A DNA stretch of 61,952 nucleotides, filler included, from Hausera hauseri (GCA_046269625.1; 13 parts of 13 records of this genome joined end to end with filler, not necessarily neighbours in it); one strand, 5' to 3'; counted from the whole stretch's first letter, positions 8,440 to 50,949 are shown. Notes: generated by a model from the letters alone, not told the origin. Made by a program: numbers and translations.

Positions 8440-8554
8440 NNNNNNNNNNNNNNNNNNNNNNNNNNNNNNNNNNNNNNNNNNNNTTAATTAATTAANNNNN
8501 NNNNNNNNNNNNNNNNNNNNNNNNNNNNNNNNNNNNNNNGTCACACCTCGCCAC

Positions 8555-9011
8555 GGAAGGGGGTGATGTTGTGCCTAGCAAGTGACATGCTACATTAATA
8601 TAGTTTTTATTTTGTTAATTACTGTTTTGCCGAGGAATGATGCACTCTAGTCGTTTTGCCTCGTCGTGCAGTGCTTCTCATCGGGATTACGACCATTCGA
8701 ATTTCTGGATCTCCGTTCGAGATAAAAATCCTGTGACAATACAACGACATGGAATGATCGAAATAAAGTTCAAAGACAGGCTAATCAAGACCTCAACCAA
8801 AGTGTTGCTCAGAGTTTCCTTTGCTGTTCTGCCAAGACAAAGATATTCATCAAATACCCAAAATTCCCTATTACTATATATGTATATACTGTATAATATT
8901 GCATTATTATAATGAACATTGTTAAGATGGATATTGATGACCAGTTTTTAGTTTTGAAATTTGAATAAATCAATTTTTCCTTATCACCAGACTTTTTCTT
9001 ATGAATCTACA
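8555..9011 (+). mobile_element. Polypurine tract plus 3' LTR (8567-9011) of the ordinary Gypsy family, inserted into ORF1 of another element
   Basis: GGAAGGGGGTGA then TGTTGTGCC...TCTACA with AATAAA near 8964. The start resembles the LTR at 27878 (GGGGGGTTGA-TGTTGTGCCC). No primer-binding site after 9011, and the downstream reading frame runs up to the LTR edge. Confidence 0.7.
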
Positions 9012-11237
9012 AAGTTATGTTGTGAAGAGAAACTAAATGAAGCTATAGACTTGGATTAGCCAGAAGAAGTGGCAAAAGAAACACTAATCCAGTGGAAACG
9101 CGAATTAGAACCCTGGACGAAAAATCAGACGAAAACTCCAGAGACGTGGGATAGAACTATCCAAAGCATTGAAACTAGAATCAATCAAGCTCAGTCGTTA
9201 TTAAATACATTAGAAACCAATCTGAAATTAAAAAGGGCAGTACGTAACTTAGAGCGTGTCATGGATGAAATTAGATTTATCGTAGTCAACCGACTGAAAA
9301 AGAAGCCGGTTAAAGAACGGACTTAGGTCGATCTAGGAATAATGGGCATAGATTCATTAGATATTCCGCCACTAATGGAAATGATAAAAATTGCCGCCAC
9401 TGCAACTAGACAGTATACAAGTTTGGACAACCGTCTTAAAATTGAGGCCGACAAGAGATCGCAAATATATGGATTGAGAAAGAGAATTATGCACCCAAAT
9501 AACGACGAAACACAGAAAATAATTTTGGCCTGTATCCTCGAATTCGAAGAGTATAAGGATTAAATCGATTACGTCCGTCGGACAATCGATTTTATTAAGG
9601 GTCCAGACGACGAGCTAGAAGATGCGCAGAGAATGATAGACAGGACAATAATGGCAAAACCCGAAAACGATAATCCATTAAAGGAATGGTCCGAAGTAAT
9701 AACAAGATTGAGTGAATTAGTGGCAAATCGAAAGAAAGAATTTCAGGAGAGCGAACCTTCCGTAAGGAAGCGATTAGAGGAAGACACCCGGAATCTAGAC
9801 ACTATGAAGGAAGAAATTGACATTCGAACTCAATTCGAGGCATTATGTCAATTGAACTTTATGGAAAAAAATCAAGAAATGATGATACTAGATAATATAT
9901 ATAAGGTGATCGAAGAAACAAATTTCATGCGAAAGCGGAATGCGACTTGCGATTTCTATCCGCGATTAAGAGACGTCCGCCTGAAGGGAATACGATGGTT
10001 GACAGCCAAATCTATCAAAGAAATCTCAATCCGAGATCTTAAAACCTTAGACTGTTGTCCCGAATACCGGTTAGTCGTGGAAGAGGCGGTTAAGTTCTTA
10101 CATCGTCCCCAAAAATGGAGAGATGGAACGGATCAGACTTCATACCGAACTAATTAAAATAAAGAACGACCGCCACCTTAATTTCGAAGAGATTAAATTT
10201 GTAAAAAAATATTAGATGCGATCGATTCAGATTCAAACAGTATTAACGAGATGTACGAATTACCGCTATTGATGACGGAAATGGCAGAAATTAGTGATGA
10301 AAAGTTAAGACAATTGTCGCAGCAGATACAGCAAGTCGAAGAAACTTGCATTAAGACGAAACAGAGAACGATGAGATTAGACAAAAAACAAATACGCTCT
10401 TACAGAAGCAGAAAAGGCTGATAAGTCAATTCGTGCAGATATGGCAGAAATGTAACGGCTGAACTAACAAACTATCAAGAAAAAGGGGTAATTTCACCCG
10501 AAGAATTATGTTCGATACTAACACTACTCCACCAAACATCCGCTAATGGGCGCTGTTTCCGAACAACGAAAATGGTCCAAATGCAACAGAAACTACAGGA
10601 ACTCAGAAAAACTATGTGGACCGCAAGTATGGACGGACCAACTAATACACCGTCGAAGGGTTATCAACCACCAGTCGATGAAAATGAACCAGATTGGGAG
10701 GCATATTTAGATGCAATGATCGCCGAGAATCCAAAAACTCCAATACGATTGGTTGAAATGGAGGTCTATTCTCCAGACCAAAGATTCAATATAGGAATGC
10801 TCCTGGATCCGGTATAAACCGAGAAAGATTTAATTCAATTAATTGAAGTGAACCTTACTGAAATTCAATTGAGATATCTAGTTCCTACCTTAACTAAGTT
10901 AGCTAGCGAAGGTACGATTTCTAGTACAGTAACTAAGCTTTTACTTAAGGAATATACTAAATTCTTAAAGGCAAAGGCAGAGGAAATGGTTCCAGTAAAA
11001 ATAGTATCCGACTGGATGAACGAGAAAGTACAAGAGTTCACTACTCGCACCCTTGTTAAGGATGTATTACTGTGGATAAAGGACAATGGATACGCCCATG
11101 AGTTGAGCTATAGACTTTATTTTAGAGGAAAGATACTAGACGAGTCAGAGTTATTGATAGAGGTTGGAATTATTCAAGGCGAAATAAACCGGTTAGTGGT
11201 ACCACCACTATCGATTAAACAAAAGAAGAGTCCATAA
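9012..11237 (+). pseudogene. ORF1 of the glycoprotein-bearing retroelement: helical/coiled-coil protein with C-terminal ubiquitin-like domain
   Basis: ORFs 9069, 9342, 9633, 10572 and 10848 are all in one frame, broken by stops (10160-10570 may also carry frameshifts). The C-terminal 72 aa (10986-11201) align with the ubiquitin pattern. Confidence 0.6.
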
Positions 11238-11239
11238 GG

Positions 11240-12482
11240 ATGGCTAAAGCCGAACAACAGGTAGGACGAATAATAAGAATCCGAGATGAAACAGTATATT
11301 TTGAGTACCTGCAGACAGATGAAGATAACAAACAATACGATAAAAACTTAGTACCCTTCAACGGCAGTGTACCTGCTGTAATAAAACAGAAGCGTCCAAT
11401 CGGTAGACCTCGGAGAATACGAGAGAAAATCGATTATAATGGAAATTTGATCACAGAGTTAAGGCAAATGTCCATACCGACCTTCAGTACGGACAATGAG
11501 GAACTGAACGAACTGATGAAAGATTTGATACAGATCGTAAACCACTCCGGCTTCGGTGGCGATATAACAGATGAGAAAGAGAAGACCATAGCGAACGCCG
11601 CAAAGGCTATGAAGGGCCTTCGGTGTAAATTATCCAGAAGTACCTTAAGCGATGAAATAATAATCGAGAAAATTATGGTAGAAAATACCATAGAAGAATT
11701 GAGAAAAGTGTTGCTATACCTGGCCGTTAAAACTAACCCAAATCGAGAAAATAAACTCAACAAGACCACTAGCTTAGCAAGAAGGGCCGCCAGGAAACTA
11801 CCTCAACAAGTGAACTGGTCTAAGTTATTCAAAAAAGAGGAAGAACATCAGAATAGATTCTTCTTCAATAACAATAAATTCGGAGATCTACATCAGAATG
11901 TAACCGGAAATCGCAGAGGAAATGAATCGAACTGGCTAATAAACTTTCTGACCATGATGATGTTTATAAGACAAATGGGCGCAGTTACATTATACGACTG
12001 TGACAAATTTAGATTGGGCCAAAAGTATTCGTTAATGGACTTGGATGTGTGAGAAAATGCGAGGCCCCACAGATTAGAAACAAAATAGAAAGGTTATGTA
12101 TTATATCAACAACGCGAATTACTTACCTTGTACAGAGTAGAATGTATGTTGCGGCGATCTTGCAGCATTTTCCATTGTGGACAGGTACATGGGCACTCGT
12201 CAATAATTAAGCCAACAACCCCACTAATTTCGATGAATTTGGAGAGACAACATTGTAAGCAAGATAGAAAAACGGGAAAAATAAAATTGGACGGTATGTA
12301 AATGGAAATGCAGCAATGAAAAATAATCAGAGTGTATAAAGTGGCAGCAGAAAGACTAGATATGCACACTGGACATTGTGGAATACGACACCAGAAAGGG
12401 ATTAAAATCAAACATCGTAGTAGTGGATTTTTACGAAACCGAAATGCGTATACAGAAAGCGATGTTTCATAGCGTTACTAAA
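11240..12482 (+). pseudogene. ORF2 N-terminus: basic AT-hook domain, internal signal peptide and start of a chuvirus-like glycoprotein
   Basis: KRPIGRPRR at 11390-11416; hydrophobic WLINFLTMMMFIRQMGA at 11933-11983; then VTLYDC..YSLMDLDV*EN..VLYQQ..VECMLRRSCSIFHCGQVHGHSSII..RQHCKQDRKTGKI..GHCG in the same frame past point stops. Confidence 0.75.
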
Positions 12483-21653: not shown

Positions 21654-21854
21654 CAAACCGACTTACAGTTTGACAGTTACCTGCAGGCGTATGAAACTGG
21701 TTGCGGCACTATGGTGGATCAGGAACGAATTGGTAGTAAAAACCACCAATTGATGACAATTCAGACAACAAAGAAAGCACTAGACCCGTTTGATGACAAA
21801 CGCTGCTGGATTGATAAAAATCACAGTGTTGCTTACGGGCATTATTGTATATAA
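21654..21854 (+). CDS. Polinton pPolB C-terminus (intact tail, cut by spacer)
   Basis: QFDSYLQAY...RIGSKNHQLMTIQTTKKALDPFDDKRCWIDKNHSVAYGHYCI* followed by AATAAA. Confidence 0.85.
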   Translation, partial: QTDLQFDSYLQAYETGCGTMVDQERIGSKNHQLMTIQTTKKALDPFDDKRCWIDKNHSVAYGHYCI

Positions 21855-22320
21855 TAAATATTTTCAGTCTTACTACTTGTTTTTTAAATAGGTTTCATTT
21901 ACACCGTTTTCATAACATAAAAAGGTTAAAAACATTTATTTACGAACAAAACGTGATAAAAATATTACAACTGCACCAGTAAGTATACTACATACAAGTA
22001 AAACATTTCTCTGTCTTCTTCTAAATTCCTCTTTAATCTCTGTCATCAGTATCGAACGAACAACAAGTTCGACATAATCTTTCTTTGATAAATAGTATTC
22101 ATTCTCCAGTTCATTAAGAAATTGAACACCATCTATTTTCCCACTGCATATTTCATCTGTCAATCGCTTAATTTCACTTTGTAAATCTATTTTCTAAACA
22201 TATAGATAATTTAGAACAGATTTAAAAACATATAGATAATTTAGAACAGATTTAAAAACATACCATTTGTCGTTTTATTTTAAAATGTTTTTTACACACC
22301 TTTATTTATACCCACTAGCC

Positions 22321-22547
22321 AAAAGGAGGTGGGAATAGTGAAACCCCGACTGAACCAAAATTAAAACAAAAATGACATGGCACCAATTGGTCAGTTTTCC
22401 TGCTCTCTGATTGGTCAATACGAAATTTTTTCCTCCTCTCTGATTGGTAAATCTCATTTATTCTTCCCCTTCCTGCTCTCTGATTGGTCAATCAGAGAAT
22501 TTTTCCTTCCGGGGGGGGTTGGTTCCATGCGCTCACTTCCATCTACT
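22321..22547. repeat. Polinton-like right terminal repeat ending ...CTACT
   Basis: GTGGGAATAGTGAAACC motif shared with 46928-46940, repeated CTCTCTGATTGGT (CCAAT) boxes, G-run, terminal CTACT (AGTAG on the minus strand), 700 bp after pPolB. Confidence 0.7.
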
Positions 22548-25500
22548 GATTGAATGTAAAAGGGTAGAGGTGTCAATTAGAGAAACGGAAGATTGTACCT
22601 CGGAATTGCCGGTGCTCTATAATATGGAACACCAATATGTCATGCCAGTTACCAGAATATTGTTAGAAGCCAAGACAAAACTTACTCAGTTAGATAATTG
22701 TACATTTAACATGTCGCCAATGTTCGAGTTAAATGATAAGTGGTTTAGAATGCCCAAAAGAGAAAAAGTATCAAAGCCGGAAACTTTAAGTTTGATCAGT
22801 CTACAAAGAAACCAAAAATTTGAACCACTCACTGGTATTTCACAAGGAGGAATTTACATTCAACAAAATCTGATGGATTATAGACGTATGTTGTTATTTT
22901 CTCAACAAAGGCAAAGGATAATAATGGAATTAACCAGAGGGGTGATGTGGGATGAAGAAGGTTCATCACATTGGGAAAATCTAATGGGAAAACATTACTT
23001 AAAAAAAGTTACCAGAAATGTGATGGAAAAGATGTAGGAAAATTTTTTGTATTTCGGTCAGGCAGCATCCGGATTTTTAGCAATATATTTTATTATTAGC
23101 GCTTTAAGAACAATATTTACTGCACTAGGAAGGGCCTGTGGTATTCATGCCGCAGGTGGTTGTTCCTGGAAAATACTTATAGCAGTAGTACCAAGAGTGG
23201 CCAGCTGTTTTTTAGCTAATCAGGATGCAAAATGGAAAAGAAGAATAACCAAGGAAAAGATTCAAGACGTCGAGAAGAACTCACCTTATAGCACCTTAAA
23301 TGGAAGAAACGACGATAATAATGATAATTTGGATACCAAGCCAACAAGTAATAGGTATATTACTAAGTTAAAGAGACTCTCACTAAAACCACCGAAACCG
23401 AAATATCAAAGGAAATTGATGACAAATCTACCATAATTAGATCCGACTAATGAATACCATAGAAAAAACTATCAGGAACCATCGGTGAGAAACCCATCAG
23501 CTCCACAATACGTGAAACATGGAGGAATGTACCCTACATACCAAGTCTTAAAAATAAAACAAAATTATGCTGAAGAACTTATATCATACAACCACGAACC
23601 CACGTGTAAAACTACTAATACGGAAAGCGAAGCTTGGTCTTATGTGAGACCAGAGATAGAGATAGAAGTAAATGAATGTCCATTAATTGCCTTAATGGAT
23701 ACCCGGTCTACAACCACAATTATGGGGAAGAATCAGTTACCCAAGGATTTAAGAAGTAAATTACGAAAACCCGGGGAAACATTAATTAATGCGGGAGCAT
23801 TTGGAATGGAGGAGGAAATAAAGATGGTCCTAGATGCGAAGATTAAAATTTGCGGTCAGATTATAAATCACACCATAAGAGTAGCTGAGAATCTAACCAA
23901 CGAAATACTAGTGGGATGCGATGTACTACATCAACTAGACGACGTATATATTGATGTTAAAACCGGTCAACTTAGAAGTTTTAATGAAAAACAATACCAG
24001 AAAGTAGTGTCATTAATCAAAGATATCACAATACTACCACGTTCGGAAGTAATAGTACCCGGTAAAATAGAAAGGAGACTACCAACAAGATCGGTTTATT
24101 TTGAACCATCTCCACATCTAATGGAGAAATATGATGTTTTAGTAGCACCACATGTAGATAAAATAAGAAACGGAAAAATCCACTTGAGAATCTGCAACAC
24201 GGGAACAAGGGAGAAACGGTTAAGAAAAAAAACCAGACTCGGATCGGTAACACCAATTGAAGAAATATCTAAGGAAGAGATTAAGTCGATTATCTCAGAT
24301 GTAGATAAGATCAAAAAGATAATGTCGAGGAAACTAAAGTTGGATACCAACGGAAATAAAGAAACAAAAACAAACACGATTAAATGGTAGGAGAAATTAC
24401 AAGATTCCACGGCACTGACAGAAGAGAAAAAAGAAATGTTGCTCCAACTATTACAAAATAACAGTGGTCGATTCGCCCAAAATAATTATGATCTAAGAAC
24501 GATGAACATTATTCAACACGTTATTAAACTAAAAGAGGGACAAGATAAGTGCATAAAAAACGGCCTTACAATCTGACATACGACAAAAAGGAAGATGCTC
24601 GGAAAATTATAAGGGAAATGAGAGAGAATAAGGTAATACGACCAAGTTGCTCGCCGTGGACTGCACCAGTAATAATGGTTAAGAAGAAAGACGGGGCCAT
24701 GAGATTCTGCATAGACTACCGAGCTCTAAATGAAATAACAGAGACAGACACGTATCCACTACCGAGAATTGATGAAATATTAGACAAATTGCACGGATCG
24801 ACAATATTCACGACTATCGACTTACAAAAGGGATATTGGCAGGTGGAGGTGAAGGAAGAAGATAAGCCCAAGACAGCTTTTTCGATAGGCGAAGGATTAT
24901 GGGAATTTAATAGAATGCCGTTCGGATTAAAAAATGGACCACCAACGTTTCAAAGAGGGACTGAATTACTACTGCTGGACGCACCACATGCCATGGTCTA
25001 TATAGATGACGTAATAATAGCCTCATCGGACTTTCAACAGCATTTGAAAGACCTACAAGACCTTTTTGATAGATGTGAAATAATGGGTCTAAAGATAAAC
25101 CCAAAGAAATGCTCATTCGCTCGAGCGGAAGTTGATTTCCTTGGACATCGAGTAGATAGACACGGCGTAAAACCACAAGATAAACTTTTAGGAAAGATAA
25201 AAGATTTTCCAAAACCAACTACAGTCAATGAATTACGCCGATTCTTAGGTCTGGCAAACTATTATCGAAGATTTATAAAAGATTTCAGTAAAATAGCGAA
25301 GCCACTATATGAGTTGTTACGTGAAGATTTAGAAAAAGTAGTATGGACAGGTGACTGCCAAAAAGCTTTTGAGGAACTAAAGGAAAGATTACTCAACGCT
25401 CCGATTTTGATTTATCCAGATATGACAAAACCATTCATACTTGCCACTGACGCAAGTGACTACGGAGTAGGAGCGGTCCTTTCACAAAAAGGTGAAGACG

Positions 25501-25921
25501 GGAAGGAACACCCGGTAGCCTACGCTTCCAGGAAGTTAAATAAACACCAAAAGAATTACGCAGTTATTGAGAAAGAATTACTGGCCGTCATATTCGCACT
25601 AGAAGTATTCTCACCATATATCAGTGAGAATAAACCTCTATTAGTATACACAGATCATCGACCTTTACAGTGGCTAAAGCAACATGAAAACCCAAATAGC
25701 CGATTATTACGATGGGCTCTCAAATTACAGCCCTATACGCTAAATTTCCAATACAAACCAGGAACGCGGAATGCAAATGCGGATTATTTATCAAGAATGT
25801 CAGAAGTACCAAAAACAAGAAGAGAAGTAATCGCCGCGGTATGGAGCATGGACGGATCCATAGAAAAGATAAAGCAAAATCAACAAGAAGATAATGAGAT
25901 AAGGGCTATTAGAAATTATAT
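22548..25921 (+). mobile_element. Ty3/Gypsy-type element with glycoprotein C-half fused in frame to protease, then RT and RNase H
   Basis: ORFs 22444, 23047 and 23485 share one frame, split only by point stops. Motifs: ECKRVEVSIRETEDCTSELPV..PVTRIL, GGIY, TM FGQAASGFLAIYFII; protease ALMDTRS..ILVGCD; one frameshift near 24545; RT SPWTAPV, FCIDYRALN, RMPFGLKNGP, YIDD; RNase H TDASDYGVGAVL, EKELLAV, TDHRPL, NADYLSR. Confidence 0.9.
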
Positions 25922-27599: not shown

Positions 27600-30456
27600 A
27601 TAGCTGATTTTTGTGGTGTTTTTAACAAGAAGTCCGAATTTGGCGAATGAAATCATTTGTCTCTGAAATCCATCAAATTTGAGTATTTTAATTCCGCTGA
27701 TGGTGCTTTCATCCAAAATGAAGTAGCATCGTAGAGACTGTTTCCAGGTACGCATAGCTATATTCCGGCATGACGGGATAAAACGACAAAGTATATCAAC
27801 TCGTCGGCAATTACAAAAACATAACAACAGATGAAAAAACGATAACAGTGTATTTACAGGTCCTTGTTGGGCACAACATCAACCCCCCCCCCGGGGCAAA
27901 GAAGAGACCAGAGGGAAAGAAAATAGGAAATGTGTTGAAACAGTGCAGGCTGTCTAGGAGGTTTTTGTGTGAATAAGACCCCTGCAGTGTTAATCTCCTT
28001 ACTGTAGGTACTACATGTGACGATTTGCGAATATTCAATGTCTTTGAATCTGGTTGCAGAGGAGATTTGAGCAAAACACTGTCAGATTTCGTCCTTGAAG
28101 GTGATGTATCGTTCAGAGACAAGAAAGGGGCTGGAGGAAAAAATGTAGGAGAAAAGGAAAGTGTGAAGGTTTCTAGAAGGGGAGTTTGGAGTAGGTTCTG
28201 GTAAAGGAGTAGTTGTAGAGGCCGGAATGCAAAGGGGTGAAGCAGGTGTAGGAACTGGAATGGGAAAAGCGGAGGAGTCAGAAAGGGAGTAGAAGATTCA
28301 ATTTGAGGGGTATCGTCTACGAAAAAAGCGGGCTTGACGTTGTTGATATGTACCGCTAGTCCTTTACCATCTTTAGAAATAATTGCATTGTGAGAGTGTA
28401 ATTGGACGAGTTTGTAAGGCCCCAAATACCGCACGGCGTTTGATTTTTTAACCAGACGAATTTTACCGCATACAAGTCTTCAGGTAAATATGTTTTGTCT
28501 TTGTAAAGTAACCTGCAGAACGAATCCTTACTGATTGCAACGAAGTGATTTTGCGCTGCCCGTATTGTTTCATCTGTAGGAGTGTCATCTAGGGCAGTAA
28601 GGTCGAATAATGACCGTACAGGAGCTCTGAATAAGGCTTCATAGGGTGACCATTTTGTAGATGTAGGCAAAGTGTTCCGCCAGCCAAACAGAACAAACGG
28701 AAAGTGATTCGTCGAACCAGTGTTGGTCTCTGCAAGGATTCTTAGTGACGTTTTCAATGTTCGGTGGAAACGTTCGAAAAGGTCATTCGATTGGAGGTGA
28801 TAAGGCCTAGTATGTATGTGCTGAATCCTCAATCGGTTAACAAGGAATTTCAGCGGGTTGGATTCAAACTGTGGACCCTGATCTGTGATGATGAAGCTAG
28901 GTGATCCAAACCTGCTAATCAATGTACGAATGAAAACGTTAGGTACGGTATCGGGATGATTTCTGGCCATCGCGAAGAACGGTCCATCATGGTGAAAATG
29001 AATTTATGACCGTTGTCCGGAGGAAGAGGGCCAACGATGTCAATATGCACGGATTCGAAACGCGATGTGCATGGAAAGTGGAATAGTGGTGGCTTTAAAT
29101 GATAGTTGTTTTGTATTTTTGGCAAGCTACACACTCCTTAACCCAGGTTTGCACATCGGAACGCATTGACGGCCAAACTACTTGTCGGTGGAGTAAACAA
29201 AAAGTAGCTTTAGCGCCAAGGAGGTGTAGCGAATGTATACTGTTAAACGCTTGCAGTTGTAAAGTTGGTGCGAGAATTATTACGGAATGACTTAGTTTGG
29301 AAGTGTCTAAAGCCAGACCGTCAACAATTGTACAAGACTTAAAAAATTAAGCATGTTCTGAGGTGGCTGGTTCTGTTGAAGTTGTACTTGAGTGAAGATT
29401 GGTGAAAAATTAATCGAACCAACCGTCCTAGATAAGAAATCGGCAATCAAATTATTAACCCCGTTAATATGTTTTATGTCAAAGGTAAATGTCGACAAAT
29501 ATGATATCTGTCGTTCTTGAGGTGAGTTTCATAGCCATGATGTTTAGCAAGGTCTTGTGATCGGTCTGTAAGTTAAAATGGCGAGCGACAATTATGTTGG
29601 AGAAATGCTTTAAAACGAGAACGATGGCCAATAATTCTCGATTGAACGTTGAGTACCTCGATTCAGGAGGTGTTAACTTGCGTGAAAAAAACTCCAAAGG
29701 CTGGTTCTTTCCCTTACAGATTTGATGAAGTACGGCGCCCATAGCGGTGGTGGAGGCGTCTGTAGTGAGGATGAGCTGTGCATCATGCTTGGAAAAAGTC
29801 ACTATCTCAACACTTTTTAAACCTTCCCTTACCTTTTCTAATTTGTTTACTAGTTCACGGGTCCATTGTATTGGGTGGTGTTTTTTCCACCACTGAGGTG
29901 AGCAAATGGTGCGGTAAGTTCACAGCAGTACGGCACATACTTGTGAACGAATGCAAAGTACCCAAAAAGCTCCTCATTTCTGTTGTTGTTCGAGGTAGTT
30001 GCACGTTTTTTAGCGCTTCAACTTGATTGGGCTGAAGCGAGTAGCCTTTGGAAGAAATAATGTGATCAAGGAAGTTTATACGCTTCTGGAAAAAGTGACA
30101 CTTGGCGAAATTAATCTGCGGGTTATGCTGGTGTAAATGTTGAAAGATTGATCTGAGGTGTTCTTCGTGTTGTTGGGTTGAAGAAGAAACGATTAATATG
30201 TCATCGATATAGGGAAAGGATAGCATCGATGTGGCGTTGAAAAGTCTGCGCAGCATTCCGTAGGCCAAAAGGCATGTACAGATATTCGTAAAGGCCAAAA
30301 GGAGTAGTGACGTTTGTTTTTTCGATATCCTCAGGTGACACAGGTATTTAGTGGTAGGCTTTGGATAAATCAATGGTAGAATAAATTGTAGTTGAATAGA
30401 GACGGTGTAAGATATCCTTAATGAGTGGCAGTAGGTATGCATCCATTATGGTCAAA
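27600..30456 (-). mobile_element. Decayed Ty3/Gypsy pol (RT-RNase H-integrase), PPT and 3' LTR start at 27878
   Basis: PYIDDILI, TTDASTTAMGAVL, RELLAI, VHIDIVGPLPP, ITDQGPQFES, ERFHRTLK; PPT G-run then TGTTGTGCCC; same family as 58150-61952. Left boundary approximate. Confidence 0.92.
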
Positions 30457-31396: not shown

Positions 31397-34300
31397 TATC
31401 TCAAATGCAAATGTCCGTATGCCCAATGGATATTTCGCCCTGCCCAATTGATCGGATGATCGTTTGAGACACAACAGCCACTGCTTGTCCTCCTTTTTCT
31501 TCAAAGACACGGTTATAATCACCGTGGTTTATTTCTGTCTGGGCCAAACTAACTTCTTTGGCGCGCATTTTTGGTCCACCGTCAGTTAAGAGGCTATAAC
31601 ATTTTGGCCGTAGAAATATCCATTCCCTATACTGAACACGACGTTCGATTTCATCCTTGAAGCGGCCGATTTTATTTGTAATGGCGTTGCTGTACAGTGG
31701 ATGATCCGGTGGGTAGTTAAACATGTCCAGTAATCCATCTGACTGCATTTGCTGCAGTAGCTGTTTGCTATTGACGTTTTTCAGCTGCAGAAAAAAACTA
31801 CCTGTGTCACCGGCAATTATATCAATATTGCAGCCGTCAAACATTTGCTCATAAAGTGCCAAGTCACAATACTGCAGTTCATATATACGCAACTTGCTGA
31901 GGTCCAATACCACTTGTACGATGTAACTAGGCCAGTTCAGAACGACTTCTTCTCTGTTTAACAGCACCGCAACCAATCCATCGGCAATATGGATTGACCG
32001 CCGAAACTGCGCCCTTCTGGTATATGTAACCAGCCCGCTTTTCTGAGTTGCATAGGCGCACATTAAGCTGCTTTTTCAGATTCTCCACTGTTTTTCCGTA
32101 GAGGGAATTGTTTTCAACTTGCAGTCCTTTTCGAACTTTGTACAAGCTGCGGCTCGTTTCTCCGAATTTCCATCTATGTATGCCTTGAATATGGGAGCCT
32201 GAGTAAATCGGATTGCACGATGCAGCTGTGTGACACGTACACAAAGCTTCATGTAGAACTGTAGAATACGCCAATGGGCCACGTAATTCAGCTTCGGTTC
32301 ATGCGTCATGAGCAGTTTCTTCACTTTTCAGCCTGGCGGACATTGGTTAAATGATGCGACCGGTAAATCGTCCAAAACGTCATACAGCTTATCTGGTATC
32401 TCGGGATCAACCTCCATCAGGTATCCGACTGAGCCTGCTATGTTTGCTCGTGGTAGGTTGACCATTATATAGTCCAGATCTTGTCTGTCGACTACCCATT
32501 CAAATAAACCGTACGGCAAGTGTTACGAAAGCGCCCAGCCGTACAGGTAATTAATATCACTATTCAGCAGTGATGTGATATCGGTAGCATTGACCTGATG
32601 CTTGTTGACAAATGCCATTCCGCTACGAATACCAACATCAAACATTCGATACATTTCCGGATCTTGCAGCAGTTTAATGTCTCGATCCAGTGACATTAGA
32701 GCTGACACCCAACTAATTCCCTGTATGGAATAAAAGTTGAACAGCTCCAACCTATCTTCCGCCAGCGCTTTGGTCCCAAATGCTTAGAACACATCGGCTA
32801 ATAAGTACACGTCTAGTTTAAGATACTGGAGCATGTAATCAAACATGTTTCTACAGCCCAGTTCTGTCCAAGTTTCTTGTGCTCTCCGATATTCAACTGC
32901 GATACCTGTCCATCGCGGCGGTAATTCCTCTTCTGTCCGGAGTCGCTCATATGATGTTGCAAAGTCATATTGATATATGCCTCTGCTGCGTGCAATATTT
33001 GCAGGGAACTGCGTCAGTGCTATCAACACATCTGGCAAGGTATGTACCAGCTTTGCCAATGATTCATTGAGAAATTGCAATGAATCAAGGAAGCGCACCT
33101 GGAATCGGTTTACTCGTGCCGACAGCCATAGGTATTTCTCCATTGTCGTTGGGGTTATGTACATCATCCGGTGCGGAAAGCCGTTAATGGCCCATTTGCG
33201 AATATGGTGACAGTCATAACATCGGAAATTATGAAAGATCACAGGCAGGAATGGTCGCACTCACCTTGCTAAATTGCATGAATTGCATGCTGCTTCCAAG
33301 TATTGACCAGTGAAATGGTCGTCATCCGGTACGAGCCGTTCCTCAGCATTAAACGGTATTGTTTTGTGGCACAGGTAGAATTCATCGGTGACACCGAAAA
33401 GCAACGGTTGATATTCGTCTGCCCAAATCAATGGCTTATTGCAATTGCTGCGATACTATGGCGCGATATCCGTTTCCACTATGGTTTCCAACTGCTGCAA
33501 GAAATCACGTACACAGTGCCAGTTAAGAAGACTGCTCGGCAAAGTCGGTAGATTGAAATCCTGAATCTCACTTGGTTTCTCGTCGCACATAATTAAAATT
33601 GAAGTCTAAAGAGTTTTTAAAAAAAGTATTTATTTTTATCCAATATTTAAACAAATTAAAAATAAATAATGGTTTTGCTTATTTATTTTTGCTGCTCTAT
33701 TACTGTTCCAACCATGGGAAACGTAATAATGCGGTTGTCTTGCGGCTTTTATTTGGTACTGGCAACATACCGATGGTAATTGGACCGTGCTTTTGATCGT
33801 ATACATTGTGCCGCGGTAGAATTGCTTCGACATGGGCATACCACATATACCGTACTGTCCGCTTTAGACAAATCACTGAATCTGAGCTCCTTTTTGACGG
33901 GCGTGACGTACATTGTTGTCCCTGATGCGTTTTGCCTAGATAGCGTGACATGTTTGGCTCACGTTGTTTCCGATCTGAATCCATGCAAACATACAGGACA
34001 CCATTTGCATCGTATTTGCTTTTTGATGAACTAATCATGCTCCATGTTCAATAGTCTATCCAGATTTGTCATTGATACGTAATGAAAATTTTCGGCCTGC
34101 TTCAACAGCAACAAATTTATCGAGCGTCCATTCGGGTTCCGACTGCGATAAATTATGTCCACATTGGGGTTGTTATAAATTTTTTCGTCTTCCGATACTT
34201 CAACCATTGTGTTGTACCGGAAAACTTTGATTGATAGCGTCGTATTACACCGTTCAAAAGCCGGAATGGTTTTCAGTTTCAACGGCATCAAGCATTCATC

Positions 34301-35141
34301 AAATTGCAATTCGGAATAATACTGCCGATACTGATTTGTACGATTTGCTTGATATCTGTTCACATCGCTGTACTTCAATACAGCCAGAATTCTGTACAGA
34401 AAACTGTATTCGTCGTCATTATTTTGTACATTCACTACCGCCAAAGACTGCTTTAGAGATGCAGGTGTCGGTATGAATGATCGACCAGACAACGACACCA
34501 CGTCACTCGACTTTGTTATAATAAAGCCGAGTGTGACAATTCGTATAACTCCCCATCCACTACCTTTTCGGTATAGTTGGCGATTTTCTCATCCACCTTT
34601 TCGCCTACATCGGCAATAAAATCTTTGGAATACGGTCCGGCTCGATGTGACCGATACCGTTGTTTCCAATCACCGTCAAAGTTTTCAAATTCTGCAAATG
34701 CATAATATTACACTTTGTAGTTGATGAGTTTGAATTTCTCCACCTCTAATTCCAACCGGCTGCGCACACTAGACGGAACATGCTTCAGCTATAGTGTTGT
34801 TGTCCCCGCATGTTTACTTTCACGTCGTACTTGTTTACATCGTACTTGAGAGTAATGGAAGGTTTCTGCTCTTGCATCTGCTCCTCCTGCTGCTGCGGCT
34901 CGGTACCGTTTCAGATTATGTCGTGAAGACTTGTTGAGGCCTGACGTTTCCTACTTGTTGAGGGGATACTGATTTTTCCTGTCGTCATCACTATTTCTTT
35001 TTTAGACCCCTGAAACTTGTTCAAGTGGTCCTTGTGCTAGTTATAAAATTGTTTCTAGTTGATTTCGTCAACTATAGAACAACTGGGACAAACGTAGGCC
35101 CGTTTACCGTGCACCGTTATTGCGCCATAGTACTGCTCTAT
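31397..35141 (-). pseudogene. Polinton protein-primed DNA polymerase B with endonuclease VII-like insert, multiply frameshifted
   Basis: SFIPTP..VVNVQNNDD, DHFTGQYLEAACNSCN, PVIFHNFRCYDCH, FLDSLQFL..SLAKLV, YLKLDVYLLADVF, DINYLYGWALS..PYG, NNSLYGKTVEN, GDTGSFF, IGRFKDE, LRPKCYS, AYGH tail. Confidence 0.92.
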
Positions 35142-40683: not shown

Positions 40684-43600
40684 CTATTCACTCTGAAAAG
40701 AAGCAACATCTAGGAAAATAGGAATTTCCTGATCCAAACTCATATAGCAATCACTCATAAAATACAGTCGGTAAATGTATCGTCCTGATTTTTCCGGAGC
40801 AAAAAATGACAGCGTCACTTTGGTTCGTTCCTGACGAATCATCGGAACACGCTTAAGAGCGATTACTTCCTGATTTTCCGGATAGCCAAGAATTAGAATA
40901 TAGCCTTCGTCTTTCGATTTTGGGAATTTTGGAGAAAATGCCTTCGGTATGGATCCGTTCGAAATTCCAATAACTTTCGGAAAATTCAACTGATGCAATT
41001 GGATCTGGAGAGAGTATTCCTTGTCAGCAACTAGCGGAATCCAGATTTTCTGACCATTGTGACTGGCTATTCGACTGGCACTTGCCCACGACGAGATGTG
41101 ATTGTCTTTGACGGTGGGGATAATGGCATTGCAAACAAAAACGTCTTCTCCTGCATAGTCATCTTCCTCGTTATCCACATCGGTTGATTTTGTAGCATTG
41201 TTAATGACCTTATTTGGAATCTGAACGTCATCACTACGTCCGTTCGTCATTGTCCCTTTCACTTTCATCGTCACATCCATTATTGGGTAAGCTTGTAGAA
41301 CTTCGTACACTTTGTCAACCTCTTGTTTGTCAAAACCGTGAGACAACATTTCTTTCAGAACGCCGTATTTATTATTCACGATATTCATCATTTCCGGCAG
41401 CGATGATATAGGCCGCCCGTTTCTGTCCTTCAAATATCGGATATGGTGGTCCTCAATGCCGGGTAACTGGCGCAACGGGTGATCAGTAATCCAAAGTCCC
41501 TGGACTATCATCTGGATCATCTGGATTAGACGCAGACAGACGGCAAGCCATCCTTCACTGCCAGCTGCATCAATCATAGCCTGAACAATTCTTATTGCTT
41601 GATCCAATACCAATTTCGTGTCTACATAGTAATCCACGATGGGCAATTCCGCCCGACAGAAATGAGCCTGCAGCAAAATGTTGGCCTTCGTATTGGGACT
41701 ATCCATTGTGTTAGGATTCACTTTAATTGGAACTCGTTTGGCAAGTTCAGCATTGAGTTGGTCTTCATTGTGTCGAACTGGGAGTTCTGCAAACTCGTCA
41801 GTTGATGACAAAATGTCCAGTAACTCTTCTAAAGAACTTGTTTTCCGCATTTTTTCATGGAACAACCGGACAGTGACGTGTTTTAGATAATAGTATGATG
41901 CAATTCGGCCCATTATACCAGGTTCGAGGGTCGTATTATCGGTTGGATTTATTTCAACACAATGACTTTGTTCGAGTTCTGATACGACAGATTCAACCAA
42001 TTGCGACAAAAACTTGTTTATATCTGAATGATCGACCGACTCTAATCCATAGTAATTAGGATTCATCAGCAATCGACGGAAGAAAAATGTAAATGTTAAA
42101 TAGTTCATTGCCAACTGTTTGCTGGTAACAGAACCCGAAACAATTTCAGCATTCAAATGATCTGGTAACACTTTCAACAGACTACTCTCGACCGGGAACG
42201 GGTCATACAGAAATTTCTTATAGAAGTCCTTCTTGGTGTCTTGAACCATGATTATGGCTTTACCATCGTTGTCAAACTGAGGCCGACCGGCCCGGCCCAT
42301 CATTTGCAACACGTCCGTTATCGGATAATCTACATACCGTTTCGTTCGTCCATCGAAATACTCCGTGCCTTTCACAATAACCATATGAGCTGGAAAATTA
42401 ACACCCCATGCTAACGTAGATGTTGCAATGAGTATTTGAATCTTCTGATGGAGAAACAAATATTCAACGAGTTTCCTGTCGCTCTCGTGCAAACCGGCAT
42501 GATGTAGACCGATTCCGTATGCAACTGTAAGTTTCAAGTTTTGATCGTGAATTTTTTCAATGATCAATTGAACTTCGTCGTCATTCAGACTTCGCCACTG
42601 ATAACAGTCATCAGATCCGGCAAGAAACGAAATCAGATCCAATGCAGTTAACCGAGTTTGTCGACGACTACTCACGAAAACCAGAACCGGTTTGGTTTTC
42701 GAATGAATTTCAATACATTGAAAAATTGGTTTATTCATTGTGGCCATTCGTGGGCAATAATGTCGACCAGGAAATCCCTGAATGTGAACTTGTAATGGAA
42801 CCGGTCGAACAGACGGTCTGAAATTGTAAAACCCATTGGACGATGGATCGATATGTAACCAATTAGCAAGATCTCGCGCATTGGCCAATGCAGTGGACAA
42901 ACCAACGATTCTGACTTTACAATTCGTGTACGATGAAATGAAATTATTCCTCGATACTATTACTTCAAGCACTGGACCTCTGTCTTCTCCCAGTAAATGG
43001 ATTTCGTCGATAACAATCAACGAAACATCTTGAACGAATTTCCTTTCTGTCCAACTTCGACTGACACCGTCCCATTTTTCCGGAGTCGTTATTATCACAT
43101 CCGACGACGCAACGGCTTTCATATCCGGTGCAATATCACCGGTCAGTTCGACTACTTTTTTATGTAATTTCTCTTCGAATTTCACTTTCCATTCATTGAA
43201 TCGTTCACGAACGAGTGCTTTCAACGGTGCAATATAAACACACTTTTTATTCGGTTGCATTCGAAACACTCGCAGAATTGCCAATTCAGCAGCAACGGTC
43301 TTACCAGATCCGGTTGGAGCACCTAATAGGACATTCGTATCGGAATGGTAAACAGCATGAAATATTTGCGTTTGGATGGGATTGAAATGAGAAAATGAAT
43401 AAATTGTTTGAAACTGCTTGTTTTTTAATGCAGTAATTGGTAACGGTCGTAAATCAAGCAGATTAGTTTCCGGCGGATAGACATCAGGTAAAATGAGATT
43501 CTTGAACGAAATCGGCAAACTAGTTGAAGATCCGATCCATGTATCACTGACAATTTGTAAAACATAAAACGGCGGTACTGGCTTGAATATTGGAATGGCA

Positions 43601-45984
43601 AACACTACTTCAACGGTTTCGTGATTATTAACTTGCTTTTTAGAAATGCTCAATAATTCCGAATAATGAATAACATCCGAATCTGGATCTTCAATCCATA
43701 ACCAAAAGTTTACTGACTGTGTACCATGATACCGGTCAAGCCATTTGAATTTCGGTGTAATTTTTGCATGTAGCCGCAATATTGTTCCGGTAATCGGCTG
43801 TACGTCCACATCAGCATCAACTAATGGAATGTTATTTACTAATTCTTTAACTTCTCGAGAAGTTTGACCGAATCCAATGATATCGTGAAGTTCTTTAACC
43901 GATAAATTTCGAATCGTATCTATCGATAAATTCTTCCCTTCTATCCTGTCCAATACAGCAATTGGTAATACGTTTGCAAATTGCCGTAACGGTGTATTGT
44001 ATTCCCAGAGTTGATGTTCGATCGACTTACAAATGCCAAGCATTTGATTAGCCATTAATGCCCATCCACTTCTCAAAGCCCTCTCAAACAAATATCGGGA
44101 AATTCTACCGATGCTCTGATTAACAAAATTAAGATCAGATACCAAACTAAAGGACTTAGGAAAAACTCTACTGATGTAACTTTGAATTAGAATGTTGACT
44201 TTCCCGCACAGGTCCGACGTATCTTCATGAACCAATTTTACTTGGCAACACGTTTCTGCTAACATGTCCAATTCATCCAATTCTTCATTTCGAACTTTCA
44301 TCTGAGAAAATTCACTGGAAGTTGCTAGTAAATGGAATGTTTTTTCCCGAGAAATAGTACTGACAAATTCATCCATAATCCGACTTGCAGTTTCGAATTT
44401 TATGTAATAATGACTTGTCAGTCGACCGGCATCGGTTGACGTCATATACCCGTTTTGTTCGTTGAATCGAATAAGTCTAGCCTTATCAAGTTGACGTGCC
44501 GATTCCCGAATAAGATTTTCTCGAAATTCATACAGCGAACAATCGTTACGTAATTCGGCCCAAGTAGCACCGTAAACGAGAGGATTTTTAATCATTCTTA
44601 CATATAAATATGTGTACTGGATCCAACGAATAGCCTCTTGCATATTGGTCACCGTTCCCAATGCAATTTCCGCATTCAAACAGTCATTCAATGATTTCAT
44701 TAGATTACTCTCAATCGGATATTGGCTCATCAACAACGACTGGTATTGGGCCAATTTGTCGATTTTACAAATGATAATTCCGTGACCAACTTTGTCGAAC
44801 TGCGGTCGACCGGCACGACCGAAAATCTGCAGAACATCCAGAATACCGAGATCGACAAATGACGACCTTTCCGCGTCGTAAATTTGAGTGCCTTTAATAA
44901 TGACAGCATGTGCCGGTAAATTAACACCCCAAGCCAAAGTGGCAGTGCAGCACAGAACACGAATGTTTCCCTTTAGAAATTGATCTTCAACGAACGACCG
45001 ATCTGGTCGCAACATACCGGCATGGTGACAAGCAAAACCGTCTTTAAACAAATCCCGTAAACTCTGATCTCGTGATTTGTCAACACGTTTCAAAGCAATG
45101 TTAAAATCATTATTGAGTAGTTGGTTGTGCACCACGGATATTCTACCTTGTTCCTTCATGGAATTGCAGAGAAACCGAGCAGTTCGCTGGGTGTCTGTAC
45201 GTGCATGCACGAAAACCATAACTTGCTCGCCCAATTCAAGGAAATGCAGGACTTCTCTTAGACACTCTTCGTTCAGACGTTCTTCGGGGGTTTTGATTTG
45301 ATGGGGTTTGACACCGATCAGAGTTTGATTGAGTGGAACCGGTCGAAATCGGGAATCGAAATAAAACAATCCTTTGAATGGATTGACACCGAGAAACTGA
45401 GCAACATCCAAATAGTTTGGTAGAGTTGCCGATAAACCGACAATTCGAATGACTTTCTGATGGGCCTCGACCTGTCGTAATGTGCGTGCAACGATCGACT
45501 CGATCACCGACCCTCGATCTTCGTGCAGTAGATGGACCTCGTCGATAATGAGCAATTTCACCAGCTGGACAAGTCCAGTGTCACCGGTGCTTTTGCGGGT
45601 GATAACGTCGTACTTTTCCGGTGTCGTGACGATAATCTGCGTACTGGTGATCTCCTGTTTGGACAGCTGCATATCGCCCGTGCATTCGCGAACTGAAATA
45701 CCCAACTTCTTCAGTCGAACACCGAATGTCCGTGTCATTTCTGCGGCCAATGCTTTCATCGGAGCAACGTAAATGATTTTGAATTCGTTCAATTTGATTT
45801 TCCCACCCGGCCCTATGTTCTGTTTGATCTGATGCAAAATGGTCAGCATTGCAATATTGGTTTTTCCGGCACCAGTCGGTGCACAGACGAGCATGTTTTC
45901 GTTCGTACCGTATGCCGTTTCAAACACGACCGACTGAATCAGATTCAATTGTTTCATTCCTTCGAATCCCACTTGGCCAGTCAT
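40684..45984 (-). CDS. ASCC3: Activating signal cointegrator 1 complex subunit 3 (dual Ski2-like helicase plus Sec63 cassettes); N-terminus continues upstream through frameshifts
   Basis: Two cassettes (APTGAGKT..DEVH; APTGSGKT..DEIH) and ASCC3-type signatures AYGTNENMLVCAP, PGRHYCPRMATMNKP, YRLYFMSDCYMSLDQ; 1766 codons uninterrupted. Confidence 0.95.
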   Translation of the reverse strand: MTGQVGFEGMKQLNLIQSVVFETAYGTNENMLVCAPTGAGKTNIAMLTILHQIKQNIGPGGKIKLNEFKIIYVAPMKALAAEMTRTFGVRLKKLGISVRECTGDMQLSKQEITSTQIIVTTPEKYDVITRKSTGDTGLVQLVKLLIIDEVHLLHEDRGSVIESIVARTLRQVEAHQKVIRIVGLSATLPNYLDVAQFLGVNPFKGLFYFDSRFRPVPLNQTLIGVKPHQIKTPEERLNEECLREVLHFLELGEQVMVFVHARTDTQRTARFLCNSMKEQGRISVVHNQLLNNDFNIALKRVDKSRDQSLRDLFKDGFACHHAGMLRPDRSFVEDQFLKGNIRVLCCTATLAWGVNLPAHAVIIKGTQIYDAERSSFVDLGILDVLQIFGRAGRPQFDKVGHGIIICKIDKLAQYQSLLMSQYPIESNLMKSLNDCLNAEIALGTVTNMQEAIRWIQYTYLYVRMIKNPLVYGATWAELRNDCSLYEFRENLIRESARQLDKARLIRFNEQNGYMTSTDAGRLTSHYYIKFETASRIMDEFVSTISREKTFHLLATSSEFSQMKVRNEELDELDMLAETCCQVKLVHEDTSDLCGKVNILIQSYISRVFPKSFSLVSDLNFVNQSIGRISRYLFERALRSGWALMANQMLGICKSIEHQLWEYNTPLRQFANVLPIAVLDRIEGKNLSIDTIRNLSVKELHDIIGFGQTSREVKELVNNIPLVDADVDVQPITGTILRLHAKITPKFKWLDRYHGTQSVNFWLWIEDPDSDVIHYSELLSISKKQVNNHETVEVVFAIPIFKPVPPFYVLQIVSDTWIGSSTSLPISFKNLILPDVYPPETNLLDLRPLPITALKNKQFQTIYSFSHFNPIQTQIFHAVYHSDTNVLLGAPTGSGKTVAAELAILRVFRMQPNKKCVYIAPLKALVRERFNEWKVKFEEKLHKKVVELTGDIAPDMKAVASSDVIITTPEKWDGVSRSWTERKFVQDVSLIVIDEIHLLGEDRGPVLEVIVSRNNFISSYTNCKVRIVGLSTALANARDLANWLHIDPSSNGFYNFRPSVRPVPLQVHIQGFPGRHYCPRMATMNKPIFQCIEIHSKTKPVLVFVSSRRQTRLTALDLISFLAGSDDCYQWRSLNDDEVQLIIEKIHDQNLKLTVAYGIGLHHAGLHESDRKLVEYLFLHQKIQILIATSTLAWGVNFPAHMVIVKGTEYFDGRTKRYVDYPITDVLQMMGRAGRPQFDNDGKAIIMVQDTKKDFYKKFLYDPFPVESSLLKVLPDHLNAEIVSGSVTSKQLAMNYLTFTFFFRRLLMNPNYYGLESVDHSDINKFLSQLVESVVSELEQSHCVEINPTDNTTLEPGIMGRIASYYYLKHVTVRLFHEKMRKTSSLEELLDILSSTDEFAELPVRHNEDQLNAELAKRVPIKVNPNTMDSPNTKANILLQAHFCRAELPIVDYYVDTKLVLDQAIRIVQAMIDAAGSEGWLAVCLRLIQMIQMIVQGLWITDHPLRQLPGIEDHHIRYLKDRNGRPISSLPEMMNIVNNKYGVLKEMLSHGFDKQEVDKVYEVLQAYPIMDVTMKVKGTMTNGRSDDVQIPNKVINNATKSTDVDNEEDDYAGEDVFVCNAIIPTVKDNHISSWASASRIASHNGQKIWIPLVADKEYSLQIQLHQLNFPKVIGISNGSIPKAFSPKFPKSKDEGYILILGYPENQEVIALKRVPMIRQERTKVTLSFFAPEKSGRYIYRLYFMSDCYMSLDQEIPIFLDVASFQSE

Positions 45985-46914
45985 GGAAAAACAAGATTTC
46001 TATTCGATTGACGGGAATCTGATCCCGTCTTTCTCGTGCCGGGATTTTCCGTTTCTCATCATATCGACAATATTCCGATTTACAATTTCCGACGGTGATT
46101 CTCGTTCGGTTGACATTAATATTTTTAGCCTTGACAATTTGCATTGGCAATTGAACCATACATAACGTTCCTGGAATCCATGACCAGAATGTCTGTATTT
46201 TTATTAGCTCTTATTGGTTCCGGTAAACGGATTATTCCGTGTTTAATTCCATCAATATTACAGATTTTACCGCATACAATATTATGGTCCGCAACCATAT
46301 CTAATAAGTCAATCAAATTCTTCGAATTCAATTTCAGGAACATAAACTTTGGTATAGTATGTTGGAGCTAAATTTAAACAATAGGTGTTTTGACTTCGGT
46401 CATCAATCTGAACTAAGCTTTTAAACGTTTCATAGTTTGTTGCGGATGTGACATTAAATAAGAAATAATTTGAACACAATTGGATCGAATAAGTTCTTCA
46501 ACGGAGTCATAACCCAACTGATAAATTGGAATTTGGCTGCCAGTCATCATTTCATAGTCACCATTCAGTCGACTAAGTGTTACACCATCTTTGTTTGATC
46601 CGACCNNNNNNNNNNNNNNNNNNNNNNNNNNNNNNNNNNNNNNNNNNNNTTAATTAATTAANNNNNNNNNNNNNNNNNNNNNNNNNNNNNNNNNNNNNNN
46701 NNNNNGCGACACTGGATAACAAAGAACAAAAGTGTCGCCTATGGACATTATTGTACAAATGTGTAAATATTAGATTGTACATATTATATTAATAAATATT
46801 TTGTGCAGAATTCTTTGTCTTCTGTTTTGTCTTAATGTAAATTATTTTGTTGTTTCATTTCATTAAGTGACAATGGTATTAAGTGACAGTGGTATTAAGT
46901 TTGTAAAATTTAAA

Positions 46915-47120
46915 CAAAAGTGGGGTGGGAATAGTGAAACCACGACCAAACCAATCAATATTGGGGGTGGGAATAGCGAAACCACGATCAAACCAATCAA
47001 TATATTGAATTTCAAAATCAATATATTGATTTTCAAAATTCCCCATATAAAATTCCCATACAATATTGATTATCGATTCTGGGGGGGGGGGGTGGGGTGG
47101 TGTGCTCCTTTCCACCTACT
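46915..47120. repeat. Polinton-like TIR (right end, ...CTACT)
   Basis: Near-exact reverse complement of 50950-51183; internal repeats GGGGTGGGAATAGTGAAACCACGA..AAACCAATCAATAT. Confidence 0.8.
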
Positions 47121-50100: not shown

Positions 50101-50949
50101 CAACCAAGCTGTCTCTTGCTCCTCTCGCTCCTCCACCATTCGTATATACCTTTCATCTGTTTGCGATTAGATTACCTTTTCATAGGCTAAGTTTTTCTTC
50201 TCGTCTTTATCTAACTTGTTCTTTATAATTTCTAGCCACCTTTTTGCCATCCATTCATTGCCTTCCATTCCAGGTAACCAACGTCATATAACTTATCAAA
50301 GTTTTTCAAAGGATCCTTTACTTTAGAATAAAATAATTTCCAAATTAATAGTTCTTTTGAGATCAGAGCAAACTCCATCATTACCAACTTTGGGAGTTTG
50401 ATTTCAGTATGATGCTTCATCAGTTTCTTTATAATTTCACTAGATTTTTCTCTTTTGAAATGATATTTACAGACGCAGGCAATTATCAACTTTTCACAGC
50501 TCTGAATATACTGATCTGTCATCTCCTCTTAAGTATTATCCAAATTAATGAATTTCAAATTTCAAATTTTTTTGAATTTATCAATTTTTAATTTTTTTTT
50601 CAATTTGTAGTATATTTTCATCAACCATCTCCGCCTTTGTACATTTTCAGTATAGGCACGCCATATATAACCGCCCACAAAGCTCCTCTTCTCTCTGCCT
50701 CTACGGGTGTCCACGGGTTTGAGTCACGATCAAAATTTTCTAATCAAGCATACCTCTTTTCCCAATGTATCTCATTCACACACACAAACTTTAGAACAAT
50801 AAACAAATTTTTTATGTACAATATATATAATACTAAATATACTTGCTTCCAATCCTATACACACATTCTATGTACACACATACCCCTCATTGTCCTAATC
50901 TCGATTTCTGATCGAACCGTTGCAGGATTCCCCAACTAACAATCGGGTC
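47121..50949 (-). mobile_element. Decayed BEL/Pao LTR retrotransposon (RT-RNase H-integrase) with split LTR pieces
   Basis: CRIVLDAA..CLNDFLDPGP, YEFNRLVFG, YMDD, HIFCDAS, IPRLELMAA, GIDFAGP, SDNGETF, PHFGGVYE, KIGDKVWL. PPT AAGGAGGGGG then TGCTGGGACCCG at 47132-47121; LTR remainder about 50606-50949; gag and protease absent. Confidence 0.9.

Follow-up and report, generated by a model that had tools for sequence, protein, structure and literature searches.

Within a window of 61,952 nucleotides, in which 13 short contigs are joined by N-padded linkers, the contig at 21654-25921 carries a retroelement whose remains at 22548-25921 are very probably those of a decayed, Burro-like and envelope-carrying Ty3/Gypsy long terminal repeat (LTR) retroelement, a divergent and dead member of the elements with a GAG-ENV-POL order. 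Planarians harbour giant LTR retrotransposons of a Gypsy-like kind that are known as Burro (or GYPSM1; Jurka 2007; Grohme 2018; via PMC6431247), and the passages on Burro in PMC6431247 describe one polyprotein in which the envelope (Env) lies in frame between Gag and the protease (PR) and matches mononegavirus fusion proteins; the Burro1 polyprotein has 4873 aa, and decayed fragments occur in Dugesia japonica too. An initial annotation of the stretch had put its architecture forward as a candidate novelty, a claim that has to be given up, since the layout is already described in passages of PMC6431247 and PMC13524379.

The copy lies on the plus strand. Six-frame translation, with stops read through as X, revealed a single frame from 22555 to 24570 that is interrupted only at 23035 (TAG), 23434 (TAA) and 24388 (TAG). 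Another frame, which holds the YIDD motif at 24999-25010, has no stop between 24549 and 25921, where the contig ends. The alignment of intact relatives by tblastn placed the change of frame between 24531 and 24558, and gave colinear blocks for the fusion glycoprotein (G), PR, a spacer, and the reverse transcriptase (RT) with its ribonuclease H (RH). The initial annotation had read the C-terminal half of G, a linker, PR, the spacer and the pre-RT region in one frame broken by the same three point stops, and a single frameshift near 24545 leading into RT (YIDD) and RH; the translation and the tblastn alignments agree with it on both counts.

The first block, at 22548-23295, is the C-terminal half of a G of the glycoprotein B (gB) type (chuvirus/Monjiviricetes-like), which includes the stop at 23035 and lost its 5' part at 22547/22548. 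It matched positions 383-629 of the 653 in PF24664 (Monjiviricetes fusion glycoprotein; E 3e-44), was 28-39% identical to the G of intact relatives, and has a predicted membrane anchor at 23071-23127 (mean Kyte-Doolittle hydropathy 1.83). An unconserved linker (23296-23646), with the stop at 23434, leads to a retropepsin-type aspartic protease at 23647-23940, which scored 25.1 bits with RVP PF00077 (cut-off 20.7) and 43.7 bits with a family protease profile, and whose catalytic motif at 23698-23709 is degenerate, i.e., DTRS. The interval between PR and RT is occupied by a dUTPase-like beta domain at 23980-24270, delimited by alignment with four related loci; nine of the ten PDB matches of a five-sequence profile were dUTPases, all of them weak (E 0.3-1.9). 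The pre-RT region (24271-24570) contains the stop at 24388 and the change of frame, and is followed by RT and RH (24549-25921), which remain open until the contig ends before the integrase (IN). RT and RH were matched by RVT_1 (E 2e-34) and RT_RNaseH (E 6e-41), respectively, and were together 54-57% identical to the RT-RH of the family. Their best PDB match was Ty3 Gag-Pol (E 3e-92), followed by a caulimovirus-type match (4e-62), which bears out the earlier assignment of Pol to Ty3/Gypsy, and the order is that of Ty3/Gypsy as well: PR-RT-RH in the copy, with IN behind RH in five relatives.

At its 5' end G is truncated, rather than starting, at 22548, because a repeat ends at 22547 with the terminal motif of two other repeat ends. 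This repeat (21654-22547), which interrupts G, is the end of a high-copy element that we take to be Polinton/Maverick-like from its terminal and DNA polymerase B (polB) motifs; it comprises a peptide resembling the polB C-terminus (21654-21850), short internal repeats (22397-22507) and a terminus that ends in CTACT at 22547, the terminal motif being shared by the repeat ends at 47120 and, reversed, at 50950. Its summed depth in sequencing run X1 was far above that of the retroelement. The copy is dead, having a frame change and three stops, a protease with a degenerate motif, and a G interrupted by a Polinton-like insertion.

That the fusion of Env and Pol is genuine is best seen in the intact relatives, which were retrieved by searching the X read-through with HMMER against 1.84 billion representative proteins. 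The top matches were long polyproteins. G, protease(s), RT, RH and IN share one open reading frame (ORF) in P0003 (2855 aa), P0004 (2627), P0152 (4844), P0155 (3003) and L005 (at least 3426; a metagenome contig on which an ORF for a DEDD exonuclease follows), and a single ORF extends from G to RH in P0012, i.e., the frame is open from G to RT in six natural relatives and from G to IN in five. The fusion proposed in the initial annotation, G-PR-RT-RH-IN as one ORF, is thus found in intact relatives. Among the 150 matches listed, G was present in 143, a protease-like domain behind G in 12 (10 of these in the top 13 ranks) and RT or RH behind G in four, P0060 included, although the latter, in which a bare RNase H fragment is attached to an insect-type G, was set aside. 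Ten of the top 13 matches had more than 100 residues behind G, and in all ten the frame continued into a protease-like domain with no stop in between. In matches ranked lower than 15, G was followed by a median of 43 residues, i.e., these were mostly stand-alone glycoproteins.

Upstream of G, CCHC knuckles in the same frame were present in four of the ten relatives scanned (P0004, P0005, P0011 and P0013), of which P0004 alone extends from a CCHC knuckle to IN in one run, and a Retrotrans_gag match in P0011 was under the cut-off. As a description of gene layout, the idea that enzymes are attached to Env rather than to Gag-Pol is not supported, given these knuckles in the ORF of G. Accessory modules, seen in some relatives only and to all appearances variable, were a BCL2-like domain in P0007 (PF00452, weak) and ankyrins in P0152, L003 and L004. 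A word-seeded search of the G half against long proteins had produced none among 151 candidates, a blank attributable to its limited sensitivity, because the full HMMER search found relatives. In IMG/VR, the G half had no match, a G alignment was obtained in none of 600 stretches and one distant RT locus was found; in GTDB, nine loci with a Gypsy RT of 36-46% identity were found, and all of them lacked G. Of the 90 loci fetched, one (L005) had G, and L002-L004, which start at or shortly before the protease, fall outside a test of the G-PR fusion.

These relatives bear directly on another reading of the same family, in which Pol would be made by programmed readthrough at 23434 (or by a change of frame near 24545), leaving Env in excess over Pol. 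Retroelements commonly use readthrough or frameshifting, the position of the TAA at 23434, after the tail of G and before the protease, is a sensible one for a regulated stop, and the window represents the most divergent branch of its clade. We nevertheless consider this arrangement quite unlikely, given that every one of the ten top-ranked relatives with sequence behind G is open into the protease, with six open to RT, and that plainly random breaks occur elsewhere, e.g., at 23035 inside conserved G and at the 20 stops in the read-throughs of the 5' contig described below.

The assignment of the copy to the family of these polyproteins was also seen in the tree of RT-RH. The tree (90 rows, with nine short loci dropped; a quick method, with a midpoint root and without named references) placed the RT of the window as sister to 11 family rows, in a 12-row clade with a Shimodaira-Hasegawa-like approximate likelihood ratio test (SH-aLRT) value of 98. 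A structure model of the relative P0007, with a mean predicted local distance difference test (pLDDT) score of 82, matched herpesvirus gB in Foldseek with E 2e-14 and TM-scores of about 0.3-0.4, and gB accounted for 33 of the 37 weak PDB profile matches of G. By its modelled fold, G is a class III fusogen, the outcome of a check that the initial annotation had suggested. The model ends at a frameshifted tail and is consequently uninformative on the second hydrophobic stretch discussed below.

The N-terminal part of the same kind of G was located by tblastn at 11894-12373, on a different contig (8540-12482); it aligned with positions 6-132 of PF24664 at 22 bits, under the 27-bit cut-off, and about 250 profile positions between the two halves are missing from the window. 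On the plus strand, the segment at 11219-12482 holds an AT-hook-like motif (~11390-11419), a signal-like stretch (~11936-11992), this part of G and six stops, as judged by tblastn and profiles. It is preceded at 10827-11195 (+) by a helical and ubiquitin-like (Ubl) module of the sort that precedes G in the family, which scored 18.6 bits with a profile from four relatives, a value not attained by any of 500 shuffles, the Ubl label itself having been given by eye and from PMC6431247. The module is in the same ORF as G in P0004, P0005, P0015, P0155 and L005, and the shift of frame near 11230 probably reflects decay, because relatives have both the Ubl module and CCHC knuckles in the ORF of G; on the same evidence, the separate ORF1(-Ubl) of the initial annotation is not supported and is likely a product of decay. 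The two read-throughs of the contig contain 20 stops in all. For a BCL2-like profile, 242 and 87 of 500 shuffles scored as high as the window itself. Further upstream, 9000-10800 (+) is a helical, multi-copy coding region.

The 5' contig is multi-copy in runs X1 and X4. In X1, the retroelement contig and the 5' contig are both multi-copy and diverged, with 13914 and 4584 matching contigs and 30 of 30 bins covered in each case. The contigs of the sequencing runs are short and mixed, and none of them joins the two halves of G or spans the whole of 22548-25921. The contigs at 8540-12482 and 21654-25921 belong to the same family, though not demonstrably to the same copy.

The host is likely a flatworm related to triclads, because a fragment of beta-catenin-1 (325-1215) shares 64-70% identity with its orthologues from triclads, compared with 44% for a spider protein; its 13 matches consisted of 11 triclad beta-catenin-1 proteins and two from spiders. 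Dugesiids are 89-96% identical among themselves in this protein, versus 67-70% for the window against the four dugesiid genera sampled, and a tree placed the window among the triclads without resolution and on a long branch. A flatworm near the triclads but outside the sampled genera is therefore the likely host.

Host and modules matter for the possibility that the copy stems from an independent, non-Burro lineage, in which pol had acquired a chuvirus-like G on its upstream side in an event of its own and had converged on the same order. Chary and Hayashi (eLife, PMC13524379) report Ty3/gypsy elements with the GAG-ENV-POL order and a gB-type, chuvirus-like Env from nematodes (for which they cite Sacco et al. 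2022, J Gen Virol, pmid 35550022), bryozoans and flatworms, and according to their text such elements are not monophyletic, which would leave room for a further capture like those of nematodes or bryozoans; moreover, our RT tree contains no named Burro sequence, and BCL2, ankyrin and BIR domains were not found in the window. Set against this are the Ubl, BCL2-like, ankyrin and dUTPase-like modules that the clade has in the order of Burro, the triclad-like host, and the motifs of Env: in supplement 2 of PMC13524379, the six Env rows of Schmidtea errantiviruses share YQES/TD, EC..CG..S, TP..L and TNY.G with the relatives, by eye, and these motifs were not seen in the bryozoan and nematode Env rows of that paper that were compared in the same way. 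A separate origin of this kind is therefore improbable, marginally more so than regulated readthrough. As for a chance junction, i.e., a stand-alone chuvirus glycoprotein fossil lying in frame beside an unrelated Gypsy pol, or an assembly chimera, such joins do occur, as the insect-type G of P0060 and its RNase H fragment illustrate, and the contig, besides being short, is rich in repeats, with no run contig across the whole stretch, but the same proteins are the best matches of G and Pol, in colinear order, RT and G indicate the same clade, diverged copies in X1 cover G, linker, PR and RT (30 of 30 bins), and the intact single-ORF relatives refute it, so that practically nothing is left of this explanation.

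The placement of Env between Gag and Pol in a Burro-like polyprotein raises the question of how the enzymes would reach the particle. The predicted anchor at 23071-23127 is the only 19-residue window with a mean Kyte-Doolittle value of at least 1.6 in the 672-residue read-through, and some 30 residues behind it lies another conserved stretch that is hydrophobic too, but more weakly so. By hydropathy, P0003, P0004 and P0155 have clean pairs of signal and anchor, one for G and a second behind IN, and L005 has an additional pair between its proteases, with some noise. The initial annotation had stipulated that Pol must be cytosolic, and plain hydropathy is compatible with that. From this arrangement a scheme may be proposed in which one ribosome would make Gag and the accessory modules (Ubl and, in some elements, BCL2-like) in the cytosol, until an internal signal sequence before G directs the ectodomain into the lumen of the endoplasmic reticulum; host signal peptidase would cut the Gag part from G, and the anchor of G would stop transfer, so that PR-RT-RH-IN could fold in the cytosol while attached to G. 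Gag would be kept at the membrane by the signal remnant, the budding particles would contain Gag, Env and Pol in the 1:1:1 ratio of their synthesis, and RT and IN would afterwards be released from the Env tail by the protease. Ectodomain modules with paired signals and anchors would likewise keep the enzymes downstream of them cytosolic. A stage after signal-peptidase cleavage in which Pol is tethered to the membrane via the tail of Env is, on sequence grounds, a fair inference.

In P0003, P0004, P0152, P0155 and L005:2-10279, a second predicted type-I membrane module with a signal, a beta-rich ectodomain and an anchor is located behind IN, and L005 has a further copy of such a module between its proteases; the second module has no Pfam match and is a candidate attachment or decoy protein. 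In P0005, P0008, P0152 and L005, each polyprotein has at least three domains that resemble proteases and carry D[TS]G-type motifs, some of them behind IN (P0005 has four behind G); the domain that precedes the dUTPase-like one is the only constant member of the set. Accessory ORFs behind pol with a DEDD-type exonuclease (PF00929) were noted at L003:7268-10371, L004:6861-9920 and L005:10617-12104; short tandem repeats precede them, and the bdelloid Juno and Vesta elements carry similar ORFs. P0004 (HBK71150.1), P0032 (MGL4337185.1) and L082-L090 are eukaryotic retroelement contigs within bacterial metagenome-assembled genomes, i.e., contamination.

A broader proposal can be offered only tentatively, as we are inclined to doubt that all of it will hold: that the Burro-like clade employs a polyprotein in the style of flaviviruses and alphaviruses, with alternating internal signals and stop-transfers, host signal peptidase and up to several tandem protease-like domains, so that Pol would enter particles as the tail of a class III fusogen instead of Gag, with a second ectodomain module behind IN; the copy, as the deepest branch and from a flatworm outside the dugesiids, would then indicate that the design predates the planarian families in which it was described. 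Our search of the literature found no paper on the membrane topology of such polyproteins, a subject that Grohme 2018, Sacco 2022, Lee 2026 or their supplements may cover. The architecture itself adds little, an in-frame env between gag and pol having been reported in 2019; what is added here is a divergent, high-copy and dead member in a flatworm lineage for which named sequences offer no match. Also added are six natural relatives with a single ORF, with which it becomes testable how enzymes are brought into particles when Env is placed between Gag and Pol. Were Pol indeed packaged via the Env tail, retroelements would have a second solution for assembly beside the Gag-Pol fusion, and it would be clear why the extra membrane modules occur as pairs of signal and anchor.

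Several points weigh against a Burro-like polyprotein of this design. Membership in Burro was derived from domain order, short motifs compared by eye and the host, and that the beta-catenin contig and the element belong to one genome is an assumption from their shared window. The window is the outermost branch of the 12-row clade, with a long end branch of 0.69. The linker that contains the stop at 23434 cannot be aligned, and homology is therefore unable to mark this stop as decay. Pfam and family profiles found no Gag, CCHC or BCL2 in the window, and the region at 9000-10800 matched neither Pfam nor the relatives and is not Gag by any test run. Neither the pieces of the window, which are 4 kb contigs, nor L003 and L005 in their 3' parts contained a repeat of LTR size. 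The predicted topology is based on plain hydropathy; at the threshold used, the signal and anchor pairs are noisy or incomplete in L005 and P0152, and in P0011 a second hydrophobic stretch exceeds it (1.71), which, if it crossed the membrane, would flip Pol into the lumen.

Elsewhere in the window, an ASCC3 helicase gene at 40687-45999 (-) has an uninterrupted frame of 1771 codons; its best named match was 52% identical, no flatworm appeared among the 120 matches listed, and from the Atlas nothing but Sec63-domain clusters was obtained, so that the gene did not place the host. A different Gypsy family is present in two copies, at 28759-30449 (-) and 60219-61952 (+), which are 69% identical in DNA; their RT is about 35% identical to that of the Burro-like family. 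A BEL/Pao fragment at 49147-50166 (-), with Peptidase_A17 and RT by Pfam, is situated within 46706-51183, between facing Polinton-like repeat ends at 46922-47120 and 50950-51146 (91% identical). Decayed pieces of a Polinton/adintovirus-like DNA polymerase B lie at 31401-34588 (-) and matched PHROG 1907 (E 2e-5). The plus-strand ORF at 51654-56243, of 1530 codons, is basic and of low complexity, with internal repeats and no Pfam match. Finally, runs X2-X4, which are differently labelled, contain contigs of low depth that match parts of the window exactly or nearly so, as if host DNA were present in samples of other organisms.

Of the known systems, Burro shares with the family an Env in frame upstream of PR (the copy is one frame with point stops, and six relatives are open), an Env of the mononegavirus-fusion type (PF24664 and the gB-like fold of P0007 here), a Ubl module upstream of Env (10827-11195, on the other contig), a dUTPase-like domain between PR and RT (with weak E-values here), relatives of up to 4844 aa, some of them with BCL2-like or ankyrin modules, and a probable flatworm host. 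Burro is giant (an internal region of up to 25 kb) and of high copy number; observed here were many diverged copies in X1 and ORFs of 2627-4844 aa in the relatives. It differs in that the copy at 22548-25921 is broken and partial, with no Gag, BCL2, MATH, BIR or LTR seen in the window, and in that none of the four sampled dugesiid genera would include the host (67-70% versus 89-96% in beta-catenin). The description of Burro in PMC6431247, as far as its passages on the element go, does not deal with membrane topology, repeated protease-like domains or extra modules with signal and anchor. For Burro1 in Dugesiidae and Geoplanidae, a Hydra paper (PMC13465017) cites Lee et al. 2026 in its text on these elements.

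Smed_errantivirus_1-6 likewise have a Ty3/Gypsy Pol, a gB-type Env upstream of pol and the shared Env motifs; PMC13524379 gives the order of their ORFs, but the words 'fused', 'polyprotein', 'in-frame' and 'Burro' do not occur in it, so that the fusion itself is not stated there. Anakin, a mosquito BEL/Pao element (PMC7642597), is similar in the capture of a chuvirus-type glycoprotein by an LTR element, but the RT-RH here is of Ty3 type rather than BEL/Pao, and no Peptidase_A17 match was found on the retroelement. Two other candidates were rejected as counterparts on the descriptions given in the respective papers: Troyka (PMC12440569), which has no env, and the bdelloid LTR elements (PMC5408684), which share the DEDD ORF and dUTPase but have env as ORF3. 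Insect-type matches had G alone, or behind an integrase or DUF5641 (P0083, P0145). The nematode endogenous retroviruses (NERV), which reportedly have a continuous gag-env-pro-pol ORF, resemble the family in a metavirus pol and a captured RNA-virus glycoprotein upstream of it, as far as the available description extends, and differ in their nematode hosts, the nematode Env rows compared being without the family motifs, whereas the beta-catenin here is triclad-like. The canonical insect errantiviruses have a Ty3/Gypsy Pol in common with the copy, but their env is a separate ORF 3' of pol, whereas G here lies 5' of PR and in the same frame.

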